Positions 1-11,290 of a DNA stretch of 64,000 bases are shown piece after piece. The position numbers and the translations under genes are program-made. Position 1 is the first letter of the stretch. Each line of letters opens with the position of its first letter. The stretch is from the NCBI RefSeq assembly GCF_030384885.1, contig NZ_CP128613.1; one strand, given 5' to 3'. The DNA comes from Escherichia coli. GTDB lineage: Bacteria > Pseudomonadota > Gammaproteobacteria > Enterobacterales > Enterobacteriaceae. The notes under the pieces were generated by a model. That model ran no database searches and was not told the DNA's origin. It saw only the letters and a program-made list of their open reading frames with translations.

Positions 1-647
1 ATAAATTAAACATTCCTTTTGTTGGCTCCATTATGAATTTGGTTTCAGGGGCGAGATTTTCTTTACCAAAGGTACACTTTGGCATTGTCAAATATGGTGA
101 TAATGTTAATTCAATCACTGTTGATAAATGGATATATACAGGAAAATCTCTTTATTCTGCTTACAATACCAAACAAGCGTTCACAGATAATTATCCTCAT
201 GGCGCATTTTCGCTTTTGCCACCATTTATCACGCACGGTCAATTTTCTGTTCACAGAGGATTTAATTATTATATGCGCCTCACTAAAATTTATTTTCGCA
301 AATCGAACCGTCTTATATTAATGCTTTCTTTTTTGGCGCTGGGGCTTGCGTTTGGTTTCTGGCTCCAGTCTGGAAAGAATGTTGATGAAATCTCAGCTAT
401 TAAATCTGCTTATGCTGAACAGGCGAGGGCGGTAACGCCTGATTCGTCCAGTGACTTACCCCGACTTTCTATTAATTCTTTTTCACAACTTGGCTTTGAC
501 GTTTCCGTTACGTTTGTTGATGCAAAAGGTATGAAATATCAGTATTTTGATTTGATTAAAGATGGTTATTCCGTTGATATTAAAGATGCCTGTCGTGTTG
601 TTATTAGAAAAGGCCGTTATTTACAGACTGTTACCTGTCAGGAGTAA
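1..647 (+). CDS. Phage assembly protein pI (Zot-like), 5'-truncated by window start
   Basis: Identical to C-terminal part of ORF 8128-9222; reading frame runs to window edge. Confidence 0.85.
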   Translation, partial: KLNIPFVGSIMNLVSGARFSLPKVHFGIVKYGDNVNSITVDKWIYTGKSLYSAYNTKQAFTDNYPHGAFSLLPPFITHGQFSVHRGFNYYMRLTKIYFRKSNRLILMLSFLALGLAFGFWLQSGKNVDEISAIKSAYAEQARAVTPDSSSDLPRLSINSFSQLGFDVSVTFVDAKGMKYQYFDLIKDGYSVDIKDACRVVIRKGRYLQTVTCQE

Positions 648-654
648 TATTATT

Positions 655-1920
655 ATGCGCTCTGTTATTGTTGCTTTTTTATTTGCCTGTTCATTCTGCG
701 TTTCTGCTGAAACTGTTAATTTAAATAATTCATCTGTTCGCTCATTTGTTCAGTGGTATTCTTCAAAAACTGGCAAGCCTGTTATTGTTAATCCTGATAT
801 TAAAGGAAACGTAACCGTATTTAATGCTGATGTTAATCCAGCAAATATTGATGATTTCTTTAAGTCTGTTCTGAATGCTAACGGTTTTGTCATGCTTTCT
901 GGCAATCCTGCGGTAGTCTCTTTGCCGTCTAAATTACCTTCACAGATGGTTTCGGATTCCGATGATTCTGATAACCAGTCTTATGATACTTTTCCTTCTG
1001 AGCCATCTTACCAGCCAGTACCTGTGGCGCTTACGGTCAGAAATTTTAAGCTGACAAAAGTTAGATCGTCCGATGTTCAGCAACTGATTAAAATTTATCT
1101 TGATTCTAATGGTGGTGGTAATGTCGTGGATTATCCAGGCAATAACTCGCTGATTGTTTCTGCGCCTGACGAGCTGCTGCCGGTTCTGTCCGATTTTATC
1201 AATTCTGTGGATGTTGCCCGCGATCAGGTTCTCATTCAGTCGCTGATGTTTGAAACCAGCTTGTCTGATGGCGTTGATTTATCGTTTGCGGCAGGTTCTG
1301 CATCCGGTCATAAGGTTGCGGGGGGCTTTAATACTTCTGCACTGGGTAGCGCTCTTTCTACGGCGGGCGGTTCTTTTGGTATTTTTGATGGTAACGTGTT
1401 GGCGCTGTCTCTGCGTGCTGTCCAGAGTAATTCACGCTCTAAGGTGATTTCAACGCCGCGTATTCTTACTCAGTCTGGTCAGACTGGTTACATTTCCGTA
1501 GGTAAGAATGTGCCGTTTATCACCGGAAAGGTAACGGGCGAATCTGCCGGGGTAAATAATCCGTTTCAGACTATCGAGCGTCATGATGTTGGCGTTTCTC
1601 TCAAGGTAACGCCTGTTGTCATGGGTAACGGGCAACTAGTTCTGACTATCGACACTCGCGCTGATTCAATCAGCAATGATGATCAGGCATCCGATATTAT
1701 TACTAATCAGCGCCAGATTCAGACGACAGTCCAGATTAAGGATGGTCAGACGTTGTTATTGGGAGGGCTTATCGATTCATCGTTCAGCAATGCCGAGCGT
1801 TCAGTTCCAGTTATAAGTAAAATTCCTCTTATAGGCTGGATTTTCAGTAGCAAGGCAGACAGCAATGAACAGCGTATTATGTATATTTTGCTTACAGCAC
1901 ATATCATTCGTCCACTTTGA
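655..1920 (+). CDS. Phage secretin pIV (outer-membrane export channel), copy 1
   Basis: ATG at 655 preceded by GGAG; signal-peptide-like N-terminus MRSVIVAFLFACSFCVSA; identical to 9230-10495; secretin-like Gly/Ser-rich C-terminal half. Confidence 0.85.
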   Translation: MRSVIVAFLFACSFCVSAETVNLNNSSVRSFVQWYSSKTGKPVIVNPDIKGNVTVFNADVNPANIDDFFKSVLNANGFVMLSGNPAVVSLPSKLPSQMVSDSDDSDNQSYDTFPSEPSYQPVPVALTVRNFKLTKVRSSDVQQLIKIYLDSNGGGNVVDYPGNNSLIVSAPDELLPVLSDFINSVDVARDQVLIQSLMFETSLSDGVDLSFAAGSASGHKVAGGFNTSALGSALSTAGGSFGIFDGNVLALSLRAVQSNSRSKVISTPRILTQSGQTGYISVGKNVPFITGKVTGESAGVNNPFQTIERHDVGVSLKVTPVVMGNGQLVLTIDTRADSISNDDQASDIITNQRQIQTTVQIKDGQTLLLGGLIDSSFSNAERSVPVISKIPLIGWIFSSKADSNEQRIMYILLTAHIIRPL

Positions 1921-1989
1921 TGGATAGCGGGTAGGTGCGTGAGCCCTGCTCGCTATCCATCAAATGGACATTATTGATTGGGGTAACTA

Positions 1990-2298
1990 ATGGATTCTTA
2001 TGGGATTTTATCTGCTCTGGCAGAACGAACGATTACAGCGGAAGAAGCAAAAACAATGACACTTGCAGCCAGAAGTTCTTCGGCTCAGGTAAATGAAGCA
2101 TCACTTGCTCTGTTACTGATTGATAATACTCTGGATGCGATCAAAGCAGCTGCCAGTGAAGGGAAAGGATACACTTTACTTCCTTCTTATGAGATTTCTG
2201 TAAAAGCCATTGATTTAGCAGAAGAATTTTTAAGGAAACAATGCGGCTATGTTATTGATAACCAGAATGGCGTAAGGACGGTCTATTGGTTTATATGA
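1990..2298 (+). CDS. Hypothetical phage accessory protein (102 aa), copy 1
   Basis: ORF identical to 10565-10873; sits after gene IV hairpin. Confidence 0.5.
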   Translation: MDSYGILSALAERTITAEEAKTMTLAARSSSAQVNEASLALLLIDNTLDAIKAAASEGKGYTLLPSYEISVKAIDLAEEFLRKQCGYVIDNQNGVRTVYWFI

Positions 2299-2415
2299 TA
2301 ACCCCGGACAATGACAAAACTTGCTTTTGTTAGTGTCAGGGGTTGGCCAAGCCGAACAATTCTGTTTTTTTAGCGTTATTGCTGATTCGGCGCGGCAGCA
2401 TTACGAGGAGATAAA

Positions 2416-2649
2416 ATGCAATTTTTCACATCCAGCGATACTGTAATGTTATGTGCGAAGACCTGCGATCGCTGTGGTCGCCATGCGAAGACGGTGGTAG
2501 ATGACATTGAGTTCAATGAGTTTCTGTCTGTTAATCACTTAGCTGGATACGGTTCAATTTTTGGTGACAGTAATCGCTTAAAACTGGATTTATGCCAACA
2601 TTGCCTGAAAGACGTCCTGGGCCAGTGGATTACGGTCTGTGACCAATGA
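2416..2649 (+). CDS. Hypothetical Cys-rich (CxxC...CxxC zinc-ribbon-like) phage accessory protein (77 aa), copy 1
   Basis: Strong RBS GAGGAG upstream of ATG; two CxxC pairs (CDRC, CQHC); identical to 10991-11224. Confidence 0.55.
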   Translation: MQFFTSSDTVMLCAKTCDRCGRHAKTVVDDIEFNEFLSVNHLAGYGSIFGDSNRLKLDLCQHCLKDVLGQWITVCDQ

Positions 2650-2687
2650 CGGCACCGGTAACGCCAGTTCCCGCCATCCTTACCATT

Positions 2688-10495: not shown

Positions 10496-10538
10496 TGGAT
10501 AGCGGGTAGGTGCGTGAGCCCTGCTCGCTATCCATCAA
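10492..10538 (+). terminator. Large perfect hairpin at the end of gene IV; candidate terminator / packaging-signal hairpin (copy also at 1917-1963)
   Basis: 13-bp perfect inverted repeat TTGATGGATAGCG / CGCTATCCATCAA with 21-nt loop; gene IV stop codon lies in the 5' arm. Confidence 0.5.
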
Positions 10539-10564
10539 ATGGACATTATTGATTGGGGTAACTA

Positions 10565-10873
10565 ATGGATTCTTATGGGATTTTATCTGCTCTGGCAGAA
10601 CGAACGATTACAGCGGAAGAAGCAAAAACAATGACACTTGCAGCCAGAAGTTCTTCGGCTCAGGTAAATGAAGCATCACTTGCTCTGTTACTGATTGATA
10701 ATACTCTGGATGCGATCAAAGCAGCTGCCAGTGAAGGGAAAGGATACACTTTACTTCCTTCTTATGAGATTTCTGTAAAAGCCATTGATTTAGCAGAAGA
10801 ATTTTTAAGGAAACAATGCGGCTATGTTATTGATAACCAGAATGGCGTAAGGACGGTCTATTGGTTTATATGA
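10565..10873 (+). CDS. Hypothetical phage accessory protein (102 aa), copy 2
   Basis: ORF duplicated exactly in copy 1; no Ff counterpart. Confidence 0.5.
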   Translation: MDSYGILSALAERTITAEEAKTMTLAARSSSAQVNEASLALLLIDNTLDAIKAAASEGKGYTLLPSYEISVKAIDLAEEFLRKQCGYVIDNQNGVRTVYWFI

Positions 10874-10990
10874 TAACCCCGGACAATGACAAAACTTGCT
10901 TTTGTTAGTGTCAGGGGTTGGCCAAGCCGAACAATTCTGTTTTTTTAGCGTTATTGCTGATTCGGCGCGGCAGCATTACGAGGAGATAAA

Positions 10991-11224
10991 ATGCAATTTT
11001 TCACATCCAGCGATACTGTAATGTTATGTGCGAAGACCTGCGATCGCTGTGGTCGCCATGCGAAGACGGTGGTAGATGACATTGAGTTCAATGAGTTTCT
11101 GTCTGTTAATCACTTAGCTGGATACGGTTCAATTTTTGGTGACAGTAATCGCTTAAAACTGGATTTATGCCAACATTGCCTGAAAGACGTCCTGGGCCAG
11201 TGGATTACGGTCTGTGACCAATGA
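10991..11224 (+). CDS. Hypothetical Cys-rich zinc-ribbon-like phage accessory protein (77 aa), copy 2
   Basis: GAGGAG RBS; CxxC...CxxC; duplicated exactly in copy 1. Confidence 0.55.
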   Translation: MQFFTSSDTVMLCAKTCDRCGRHAKTVVDDIEFNEFLSVNHLAGYGSIFGDSNRLKLDLCQHCLKDVLGQWITVCDQ

Positions 11225-11262
11225 CGGCACCGGTAACGCCAGTTCCCGCCATCCTTACCATT

Positions 11263-11290
11263 GGTGCGCATAATGTATATTATGTTAAAT
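11263..11290. other. dif: Chromosomal dif site (XerCD target) at the right prophage junction
   Basis: Exact 28-mer GGTGCGCATAATGTATATTATGTTAAAT, the canonical E. coli dif sequence. Confidence 0.95.

Follow-up and report, generated by a model that had tools for sequence, protein, structure and literature searches.

A probable UPphi-type filamentous prophage array at the dif site of an Escherichia coli chromosome

Introduction

Among the filamentous phages that integrate at the chromosomal dif site, CTXphi encodes cholera toxin, and Ypfphi and CUS-1 affect the fitness of plague and neonatal-meningitis strains. To our knowledge, dif-integrating filamentous phages are missed by standard prophage finders; owing to the roles of CTXphi, Ypfphi and CUS-1 in pathogens, their correct annotation in E. 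coli is worthwhile. Here, we analysed one 64,000-nucleotide (nt) stretch of an Escherichia coli chromosome (contig NZ_CP128613.1; hereafter, the window), the first 11,290 nt of which contain repeated filamentous phage genes and end with a dif site.

The closest described phages are the UPphi viruses (Shapiro & Putonti 2020, Virus Evol 6:veaa030, PMC7307601). UPphi901 is most similar to I2-2 and IKe; its core genes I-X are syntenic with theirs, at ~70% on the amino acid (aa) level over the shared genes. It integrates at dif as a tandem repeat, and read depth indicated three copies in strain UMB0901. Genes II and V of UPphi901 are >85% identical to those of Ypfphi, and the rest is unrelated. Two novel open reading frames (ORFs) are located where IKe, I2-2 and M13 are intergenic; three reverse ORFs are located near dif, two of them present in only ~1/4 of the members. 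Variation within the group lies mainly in the number of GGGES repeats of g3p. UPphi901 is shed into the culture supernatant, and DNase-protected DNA was found in the supernatants of four isolates. The hosts of the UPphi viruses are E. coli, Salmonella, Klebsiella, Citrobacter and Y. enterocolitica (all PMC7307601).

Ypfphi and CUS-1 have been placed in the CTX class of dif-integrating phages (PMC4246890, Table 2). As described in a review of Ypfphi, the XerC/XerD sites of this phage are in inverted orientation, it occurs in 2-4 tandem copies, and dif remains intact at the 3' end (PMC4266046).

Prophage array at dif

By repeat comparison, window positions 1-2701 are identical to 8576-11276, letter for letter, when shifted by 8,575 bp; the identity first breaks at position 2702. 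With this 8,575-bp period, the window contains one full unit (2702-11276) and the last 2,701 bp of the upstream copy, corresponding to ~1.3 copies. The initial annotation had claimed a repeat of 1-2700 at 8576-11275 with at least 1.3 head-to-tail copies, together with an intact dif at the end and a dif-like attP. These claims were borne out, the repeat being one base longer: dif matches at 28 of 28 positions, and the dif-like site, attP1, lies at the junction between the copies.

1-2701, + strand: 3' part of the upstream prophage copy, cut by the window start and identical to 8576-11276; it contains the C-terminal part of gene I, gene IV, a packaging-signal-like hairpin, orf102, orf77, and the XerC arm with TGT
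11263-11290, + strand: attR, the intact chromosomal dif (28/28); the phage-derived XerC arm and TGT are joined to the host central region and XerD arm

The E. coli dif sequence GGTGCGCATAATGTATATTATGTTAAAT at 11263-11290 is the sole site in the 64 kb within 8 substitutions. One empty-site relative, E. coli 24A16CRGN010, contains hipB-hipA, dif and the right flank of the window (297/300 nt identical) without the prophage. Because this prophage-free strain has hipA-dif followed by the same right flank, the array is inserted exactly at dif. The same phage variant is present in E. coli O20:H12 Res13-Lact-PEB17-18, with 99.6% identity over the full length; at its left junction, the hipA flank (TTGGTTTAT..) is joined to GGTGCGCATAA-TGTCAACGCG, that is, attL has the attP1 sequence. 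As in the relatives, the left end of the window's array is expected to carry a phage-type site. The host assignment was confirmed by the core genes dosP, gadC and gadB in the window, which are 98-99.4% identical to those of E. coli. Taken together, these observations indicate that the region is very probably the right-hand end of a head-to-tail UPphi-type filamentous prophage array, located between hipA and dif of the E. coli chromosome.

Assignment to the UPphi viruses

The unit encodes a complete gene set in Ff order (II/X, V, VII, IX, VIII, III, VI, I and IV), and every core ORF is intact. The proteins of the unit were compared with IKe, I2-2 and M13 at the aa level by tblastn; the identities are listed with the genes.

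4662-5714, + strand: gene II, rolling-circle replication initiator, 350 aa; TIGR01629 rep_II_X 2e-76, phrog_702; IKe 24-28% (partial), I2-2 56%, M13 23%, Ypfphi 86%
5400-5714, + strand: gene X, in-frame internal start of gene II; phrog_17464; internal ATG with GGGAG upstream
5726-6043, + strand: gene V, single-stranded DNA (ssDNA)-binding protein, 105 aa; IKe no hit, I2-2 40%, M13 no hit, Ypfphi 94%; annotated by PGAP as 'DNA-binding protein' in relatives
6046-6132, + strand: gene VII, minor coat protein, 28 aa; IKe 70%, I2-2 70%, M13 no hit
6132-6227, + strand: gene IX, minor coat protein, 31 aa; IKe 57%, I2-2 53%, M13 no hit
6247-6489, + strand: gene VIII, major coat protein precursor, 80 aa; phrog_1646; IKe 59%, I2-2 55%, M13 48%
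6536-7786, + strand: gene III, attachment protein, 416 aa; IKe 50% (full length), I2-2 56% (first 191 aa), M13 partial (two ~60-aa stretches, 34-51%); five GGGES repeats encoded at ~7151-7225
7786-8127, + strand: gene VI, minor coat protein; phrog_1944; IKe 51%, I2-2 52%, M13 35%
8128-9222, + strand: gene I, assembly ATPase (Zot-like); phrog_1675 2.5e-177; IKe 66%, I2-2 65%, M13 54%
9230-10495, + strand: gene IV, outer-membrane secretin; phrog_1012; IKe 72%, I2-2 74%, M13 50%
10565-10873, + strand: orf102, UPphi-specific ORF after gene IV (h1/h2 of PMC7307601); kept in all E. coli relatives examined; no family match
10991-11224, + strand: orf77, second UPphi-specific ORF; CxxC...CxxC motifs; kept in relatives

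Each trait reported for the UPphi group was found in the unit. Its core is syntenic with, and most similar to, that of IKe/I2-2. Compared to Ypfphi, pII and pV are highly similar (86% and 94%), and the only other protein match is pIV (27%); the Ypfphi reference was the tandem array of Y. pestis NCTC5923 (period 8,742 bp), which was retrieved by a pII scan with one genome per species. Like h1 and h2 of UPphi901, orf102 and orf77 follow gene IV, and both are present in all the E. coli relatives examined. The unit is arranged in tandem at dif, with ~1.3 copies visible.

The primers published for UPphi901 also match the window. Primer UPphi_shortFW matches exactly at 7116-7135 and UPphi_shortRV, with 2 mismatches, at 6666-6685; both sites are in gene III. 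Primer IntCheck_RV, which lies in the phage region next to dif according to the paper, matches orf102 exactly in both copies (10592-10611 and 2017-2036). No site for the host primer IntCheck_FW was found in the window, as the sequence to the right of dif is a different one in this strain. In UM146, the reverse complement of this primer is present right of dif; outside the cargo slot described below, the UM146 prophage and the unit are 99% identical. The accessions of UM146, F11 and NCTC9104 were not found in the supplements of PMC7307601.

Since every reported group trait is present and the UPphi901 primers match the window, the unit, as judged by its sequence, is very probably a UPphi virus (Inoviridae, related to Lineavirus IKe/I2-2) and an ordinary member of the group published in 2020. 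The initial annotation had regarded an integrating Ff-like phage as a surprise; the interpretation was right, but the novelty did not hold, as such phages had already been published as UPphi viruses (PMC7307601).

'Ff-like' is true for the architecture of the unit; by the aa identities, its nearest relatives are Lineavirus IKe/I2-2, not M13. The full Ff set with M13-like pI, pVI, pVIII, pVII and pIX that had been claimed was correct in the Ff order and in the similarity of pI, pVI and pVIII (and pIV) to M13; however, pVII and pIX gave no M13 hit, and the morphogenesis genes are nearer to IKe/I2-2. A comparison of the unit with CUS-1/Ypfphi and Ff/IKe/I2-2 had been proposed as a check. When it was run, IKe/I2-2 were the closest, whereas Ypfphi shared only attP, genes II and V and two non-coding elements. 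On the nucleotide level, megablast of the unit against 50,697 phage records returned only ~190-bp gene IV matches, from IKe and Erwinia PEar phages, with no UPphi or Ypfphi record among them.

Hallmarks of the Ff group (genus Inovirus) are near-identical genomes, the Ff pII/origin system and an exclusively episomal state. Membership of the unit in this group was ruled out; its pII and pI are 23% and 54% identical to those of M13, and it is integrated at dif.

The attP module

The attP module lies at the left end of the full unit, where it meets the upstream copy.

2688-2719, + strand: attP1, copy-to-copy junction, GGTGCGCATAA / TGTCAACGCG / TTATGTTGAAA; XerC arm as in dif, 10-nt spacer starting with TGT, XerD-like arm 9/11
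2720-2753, no strand assigned: G+C-rich hairpin GGCCGCTGCG...CGCAGCGGCC, tip of the folded attP; stem invariant in 8 relatives; located between the convergent orf77 and cargo gene
2754-2780, - strand: attP2, inverted dif-like site, GGTTCGCACAA-TGACG-TTATGCTAAAG; 5-nt spacer; pairs with attP1 in the (+) strand; 35 nt downstream of attP1

The (+) strand of 2680-2792 folds with a free energy (dG) of -33.5 kcal/mol and a z-score (z) of -7.74; none of the 200 shuffled sequences folded as well. In the folded strand, attP1 pairs with attP2 into one long forked hairpin, with the central region unpaired or bulged. The module is conserved in eight sequences, which come from UPphi variants, the CUS-like contig L007, Ypfphi of Y. 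pestis and the element that follows UPphi in E. coli F11. The eight differ only in the hairpin loop, in the part of the spacer that follows the invariant TGT, at one position of attP2 and beyond attP2; the single change in an arm converts a T-G pair to T-A, improving the pair. The identity between attP1 and dif is limited to the XerC arm and TGT. TGT is invariant, and the remainder of the 10-11-nt spacer is variable among the relatives. The UPphi attP has the two-site folded attP(+) anatomy of CTXphi.

The hairpin at 2720-2753 could double as a two-way terminator. It was not flagged by a simple terminator scan, because its 12-nt loop exceeds the limit of the scan. Rfam gave no match within positions 1-12000 of the window.

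Taken alone, a CTX-type ssDNA integration route is likely for the unit, by analogy with CTXphi. In this route, the folded (+) ssDNA would mimic dif; XerC would swap one strand pair just after its arm, with the TGT match helping, and the junction would be resolved by replication. Integration would place attP1 at the left and rebuild dif at the right, where the next genome would enter, giving rise to tandem arrays. The double-stranded sites, with spacers of 10 and 5 nt instead of a usable central region of 6-7 bp, are not expected to be Xer substrates, so that excision is not expected and integration would be irreversible. New (+) strands would be produced by pII-driven rolling-circle replication, running from the origin of one copy (candidate at 4263-4295) to that of the next. 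Because replication would run from origin to origin of adjacent copies, the tandem arrays would be functional, not incidental. Genes VII-IV would assemble and secrete the virions without lysis. The two-site CTX-type attP common to UPphi and Ypfphi predicts irreversible integration and tandem-dependent virion production.

Different from this route, in VGJphi-type integration the double-stranded replicative form would recombine reversibly, via attP1 alone, and Xer excision would be possible. The perfect XerC arm, the 9/11 XerD-like arm and the TGT homology on the XerC side of attP1 agree with the VGJphi type, and in the UPphi publication the site is described simply as 'a copy of the dif site' (PMC7307601). 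However, the spacer is 10-11 nt in length, compared to 6 in dif and 7 in attP-VGJ. Moreover, a conserved inverted partner site is located 35 nt away, the fold is very stable, and the spacer after TGT varies freely, as expected for an unpaired bulge. Phages with the same attP module have been put in the CTX class by reviews (PMC4246890). We therefore consider VGJphi-type integration unlikely and retain the CTX-type route.

Other genes and candidate cis elements

Two reverse-strand ORFs and several non-coding elements complete the unit.

3799-4221, - strand: orf140, predicted membrane protein, 140 aa; phrog_4174 4.9e-85; hydrophobic segments; annotated in all E. coli relatives examined
4263-4295, + strand: candidate (+)-strand origin core, GAACGTGCAGTGTAGGTAATACTGCACGTTTGT; hairpin with 9-nt arms at 4265-4273 and 4283-4291; ~370 nt upstream of gene II; fold z -4.6
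4310-4492, - strand: orf60, small protein divergent from gene II, 60 aa; phrog_2503 3.6e-34; WP_001335098 identical in the E. coli relatives examined
10485-10545 (second copy 1910-1970), + strand: long near-perfect hairpin, candidate packaging (morphogenetic) signal; overlaps the end of gene IV; dG -24.8, z -9.2
10872-10977, + strand: conserved non-coding stretch with two hairpins; 86% identical to Ypfphi despite unrelated flanking genes; fold z -4.3

By its position, which is that of rstR/YPO2273, orf60 is a candidate repressor. No Pfam match was found for orf60, and only insignificant Pfam matches for orf77; orf140, orf60, orf102, orf77 and orf146 (the last one right of dif) had no NCBIfam or PADLOC match.

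The 4263-4295 element matches the intergenic region of I2-2 over 34 nt with 94% identity, and its distance to gene II is the same there; it is also kept in Ypfphi and the CUS-like contig L007, both with the same pII family. The 10485-10545 hairpin occupies the same place as the annotated morphogenetic signals of IKe and I2-2. The stretch at 10872-10977 is a candidate for the (-)-strand origin or another cis element.

In I2-2, the origin-like element is at 2666-2699, and the intergenic stretch 2799-2903 (- strand) weakly resembles orf60 (43% over 35 aa, E 2e-5, with a single genome searched); the order and the spacing to gene II are as in the prophage. These orf60-like and origin-like traces would fit the published idea that I2-2 came from an integrating ancestor.

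Variable cargo slot

The unit carries one cargo gene beside attP2.

2786-3715, - strand: cargo gene, 309 aa, AbiJ-NTD4 + DUF7014 (STM4504/CBY_0614 family); Pfam AbiJ_NTD4 8.6e-27 and DUF7014 1.8e-77, NCBIfam NF046078 4e-137, PADLOC PDC-S32 4.5e-10

The C-terminal domain of the 309-aa protein scores as DUF7014, with HEPN and Abi_C only at E ~0.6; the protein contains an Rx5H motif, RNKEGGH, at residues 265-271. The prototype of AbiJ-NTD4 is CBY_0614, and fusions of this domain to HEPN RNase domains of the AbiJ type have been described (PMC3710099). Abortive-infection proteins of the AbiJ family combine an AbiJ N-terminal domain with a C-terminal HEPN domain that contains an Rx4-6H motif. A PDB sequence search with the AbiJ-like 309-aa protein returned nothing meaningful. 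From its domains, the protein is predicted to be an AbiJ-type HEPN abortive-infection protein, and a role in defence is plausible.

The gene occupies a variable slot of ~1 kb (2786-3798), which extends from attP2 to orf140: UPphi variants diverge right after attP2 and realign at the orf140 stop codon. Seven E. coli prophages showed six different slot contents.

Window and E. coli Res13-Lact-PEB17-18: the 309-aa gene
UM146: a 159-aa ORF and the ECs_2282 zinc-binding protein
1368KP: DUF6953 and a PD-(D/E)XK protein (PADLOC Aga_Helical-REase 1.3e-34, PDC-S35)
C10: a 63-aa ORF and a mobilome CxxCx11CxxC protein
VL46: a 250-aa ORF
F11: 123-aa and 155-aa ORFs

The slot content differs in nearly every lineage, and at least two of the contents resemble known or candidate defence proteins. 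Defence cargo in filamentous prophages has already been reported for other hosts. As a tentative idea, which we hold to be possible but doubtful, the 2786-3798 slot may be a cassette-exchange site at which dif-integrating enterobacterial filamentous phages (UPphi, CUS/Ypfphi) trade anti-phage defence genes; the array might persist by conferring protection against lytic phages on the host, and cargo might cross between unrelated backbones by means of the attP module that they share.

The array could also be a domesticated or defective remnant, which produces no virions and persists for the cargo gene alone. Integration without shedding has been observed for some UPphi prophages, some contain premature stops, and new infections with UPphi901 were attempted and failed (PMC7307601). 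However, all core genes of the full unit are intact, and only 31 of its 8,575 positions differ from a relative in another strain; in addition, DNase-protected UPphi901 DNA was detected in the supernatants of the four isolates mentioned above (PMC7307601). A defective remnant is improbable, and we retain the reading of an intact UPphi-type array.

Distribution and neighbouring elements

At a coverage of >=80%, the unit was found in 46 of the 5,426 complete E. coli genomes (~0.8%), usually in tandem. The E. coli genome search gave 899 matching places, of which 480 are on plasmids, mostly in the 60-80% identity band. E. coli EC5502 (NZ_CP092647.1) has 16 separate matching places for the unit and may hold a very long or rearranged array.

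In E. coli F11 (contig L015, 10070-11583), a UPphi copy and a normal attP junction are followed by a different element, whose regulator/origin region is 97.6% identical to that of Ypfphi. As judged by these identities, F11 carries a mixed array of UPphi and CUS/Ypfphi type at one dif. In the UPphi study, co-occurrence of UPphi and Ypfphi/CUS was found in only one genome, at a different locus (PMC7307601).

Genome-scan matches were also obtained in metagenome-assembled genomes (MAGs) assigned to Bacteroides, Ruminococcaceae, Aerococcus and Nanosynbacter, which are probably mis-binned enterobacterial contigs. In one such contig (L011), binned as 'Nanosynbacter', the prophage region is 99% identical to the window unit. 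A further dif-like site, AGTGCGCATAATGTGTTGAACATGTTAAAT, is located at 4811-4840 of L011, 3.4 kb left of the UPphi attL, which suggests that another Xer-dependent element is stacked in the same array.

Directly right of dif, the sequence is wholly different between E. coli strains, with at least three versions (window from 11291 onward, compared to L001:28246, L004:14398 and L009:7297). XerC-first integration of CTX-type elements would not produce such variation on the XerD side. In the window, dif is followed by a ~6.8-kb island (11291-18100), which is covered at >=80% in only 2 of the 5,426 complete E. coli genomes. The island contains orf146, a 64-aa RES/Xre (ParS) antitoxin-like fragment, a 477-aa protein, a 654-aa ankyrin-repeat protein and IS481/HTH (helix-turn-helix) fragments, and it extends up to a fimA-like fimbrial operon. 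Residues 219-439 of the 477-aa protein consist of SspH2/SlrP-like leucine-rich repeats, with a repeat period of 60 nt in the DNA; an NEL ligase domain was looked for, and none was detectable. By its gene content, the island looks like a rare effector-type islet.

Discussion

The value of the analysis for the window lies mainly in the correct label, a UPphi-type array at dif, and not in any new class. Several points weigh against this reading and its parts. Identity with UPphi901 is supported by matching traits and primers, not by direct alignment. The left junction of the array lies outside the window, and with only ~1.3 copies visible the total number is not readable. No compensatory covariation was observed in the attP fold, because the stems are invariant among the relatives; the support comes from thermodynamics and the placement of variation. 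The (-) strand folds nearly as well (z -6.9), as any inverted repeat must; the (+) strand was chosen because genes II-IV have (+) sense and dif is rebuilt at the right end. Xer dependence, ssDNA integration and virion release of this strain are all predictions from sequence, and the origin, packaging-signal and repressor assignments are derived from position and conservation only.

The duplication might also be an assembly artefact, derived from a single-copy prophage or from an episomal circle collapsed onto the chromosome. In favour of this, the two copies show 100% identity along 2,701 bp, the first base of the window lies within the repeat, and such arrays are often mishandled by short-read assemblies. 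However, collapse is commoner than the creation of an ordered junction equal to the expected attP. The same tandem layout is present in independent complete E. coli genomes, in some of which the second copy contains deletions or is a different phage, which is impossible by misassembly; for UMB0901, the three copies were deduced from read depth (PMC7307601). An artefact is very unlikely, and a genuine tandem array is preferred.

CUS-1/Ypfphi, the dif-integrating filamentous phage classically known from E. coli K1 and Y. pestis, was our first working idea, on account of the dif site, the tandem habit and the 8.6-kb size; it was rejected by direct comparison with the Y. pestis locus. Membership in CUS-1/Ypfphi was defined as ~99% nt identity over the 7.1-kb core, including the morphogenesis genes. 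What the unit shares with Ypfphi is limited to the attP module of ~100 nt (95-99%), genes II and V (80% nt over 1.4 kb) and two short non-coding elements. The morphogenesis genes of Ypfphi/CUS form a distinct module, found in 100 of the 5,426 complete E. coli genomes. Although the site, the tandem habit, the intact right dif, the attP module and pII/pV agree with CUS-1/Ypfphi, a prophage of that kind is hardly credible here, as no other DNA aligns, pIV (27%) is the only other protein match, the morphogenesis module is its own, and its regulator is a 148-aa HTH protein, not orf60 and orf140.

Compared to UPphi901, the unit is larger, 8,575 bp vs the reported 7,560 bp, a difference that we tentatively attribute to the cargo slot with the 309-aa gene. 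The UPphi901 paper does not describe a two-site folded attP and names no cargo function (PMC7307601). Our additions to the published work are limited to the CTX-type attP with its two sites, which Ypfphi also has, the candidate cis elements and the identification of the cargo.

Like IKe and I2-2 (Lineavirus), the unit has the same gene order, a hairpin just after gene IV and, as in I2-2, the 34-nt origin-like element. Different from the unit, IKe and I2-2 are without the dif-like site, the h1/h2 ORFs and the reverse-strand module; they are non-integrating and specific for conjugative pili. The gene order is also identical to that of the Ff phages (M13/f1/fd, genus Inovirus), whereas the unit integrates at dif and has ~2.5 kb of extra genes.

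The unit resembles Ypfphi of Y. pestis and CUS-1 of E. coli O18:K1:H7 in dif integration, tandem arrays, the dif rebuilt at the right, the ~100-nt double attP module, the related pII and pV and the variable ORF pair next to attL; it differs from them in its morphogenesis and secretion genes, which are unrelated, and in having orf60 and orf140 in place of the 148-aa HTH regulator. Compared to CTXphi of Vibrio cholerae, no sequence relationship of core genes was seen or expected, and the host, receptor and cargo (no ctxAB) are different. However, like CTXphi, the unit has two inverted dif-like sites that fold in (+) ssDNA, an over-long spacer (10-11 nt, compared to 12 in CTX attP1), dif homology limited to the bases by the XerC arm, and tandem prophages with dif regenerated at one end.

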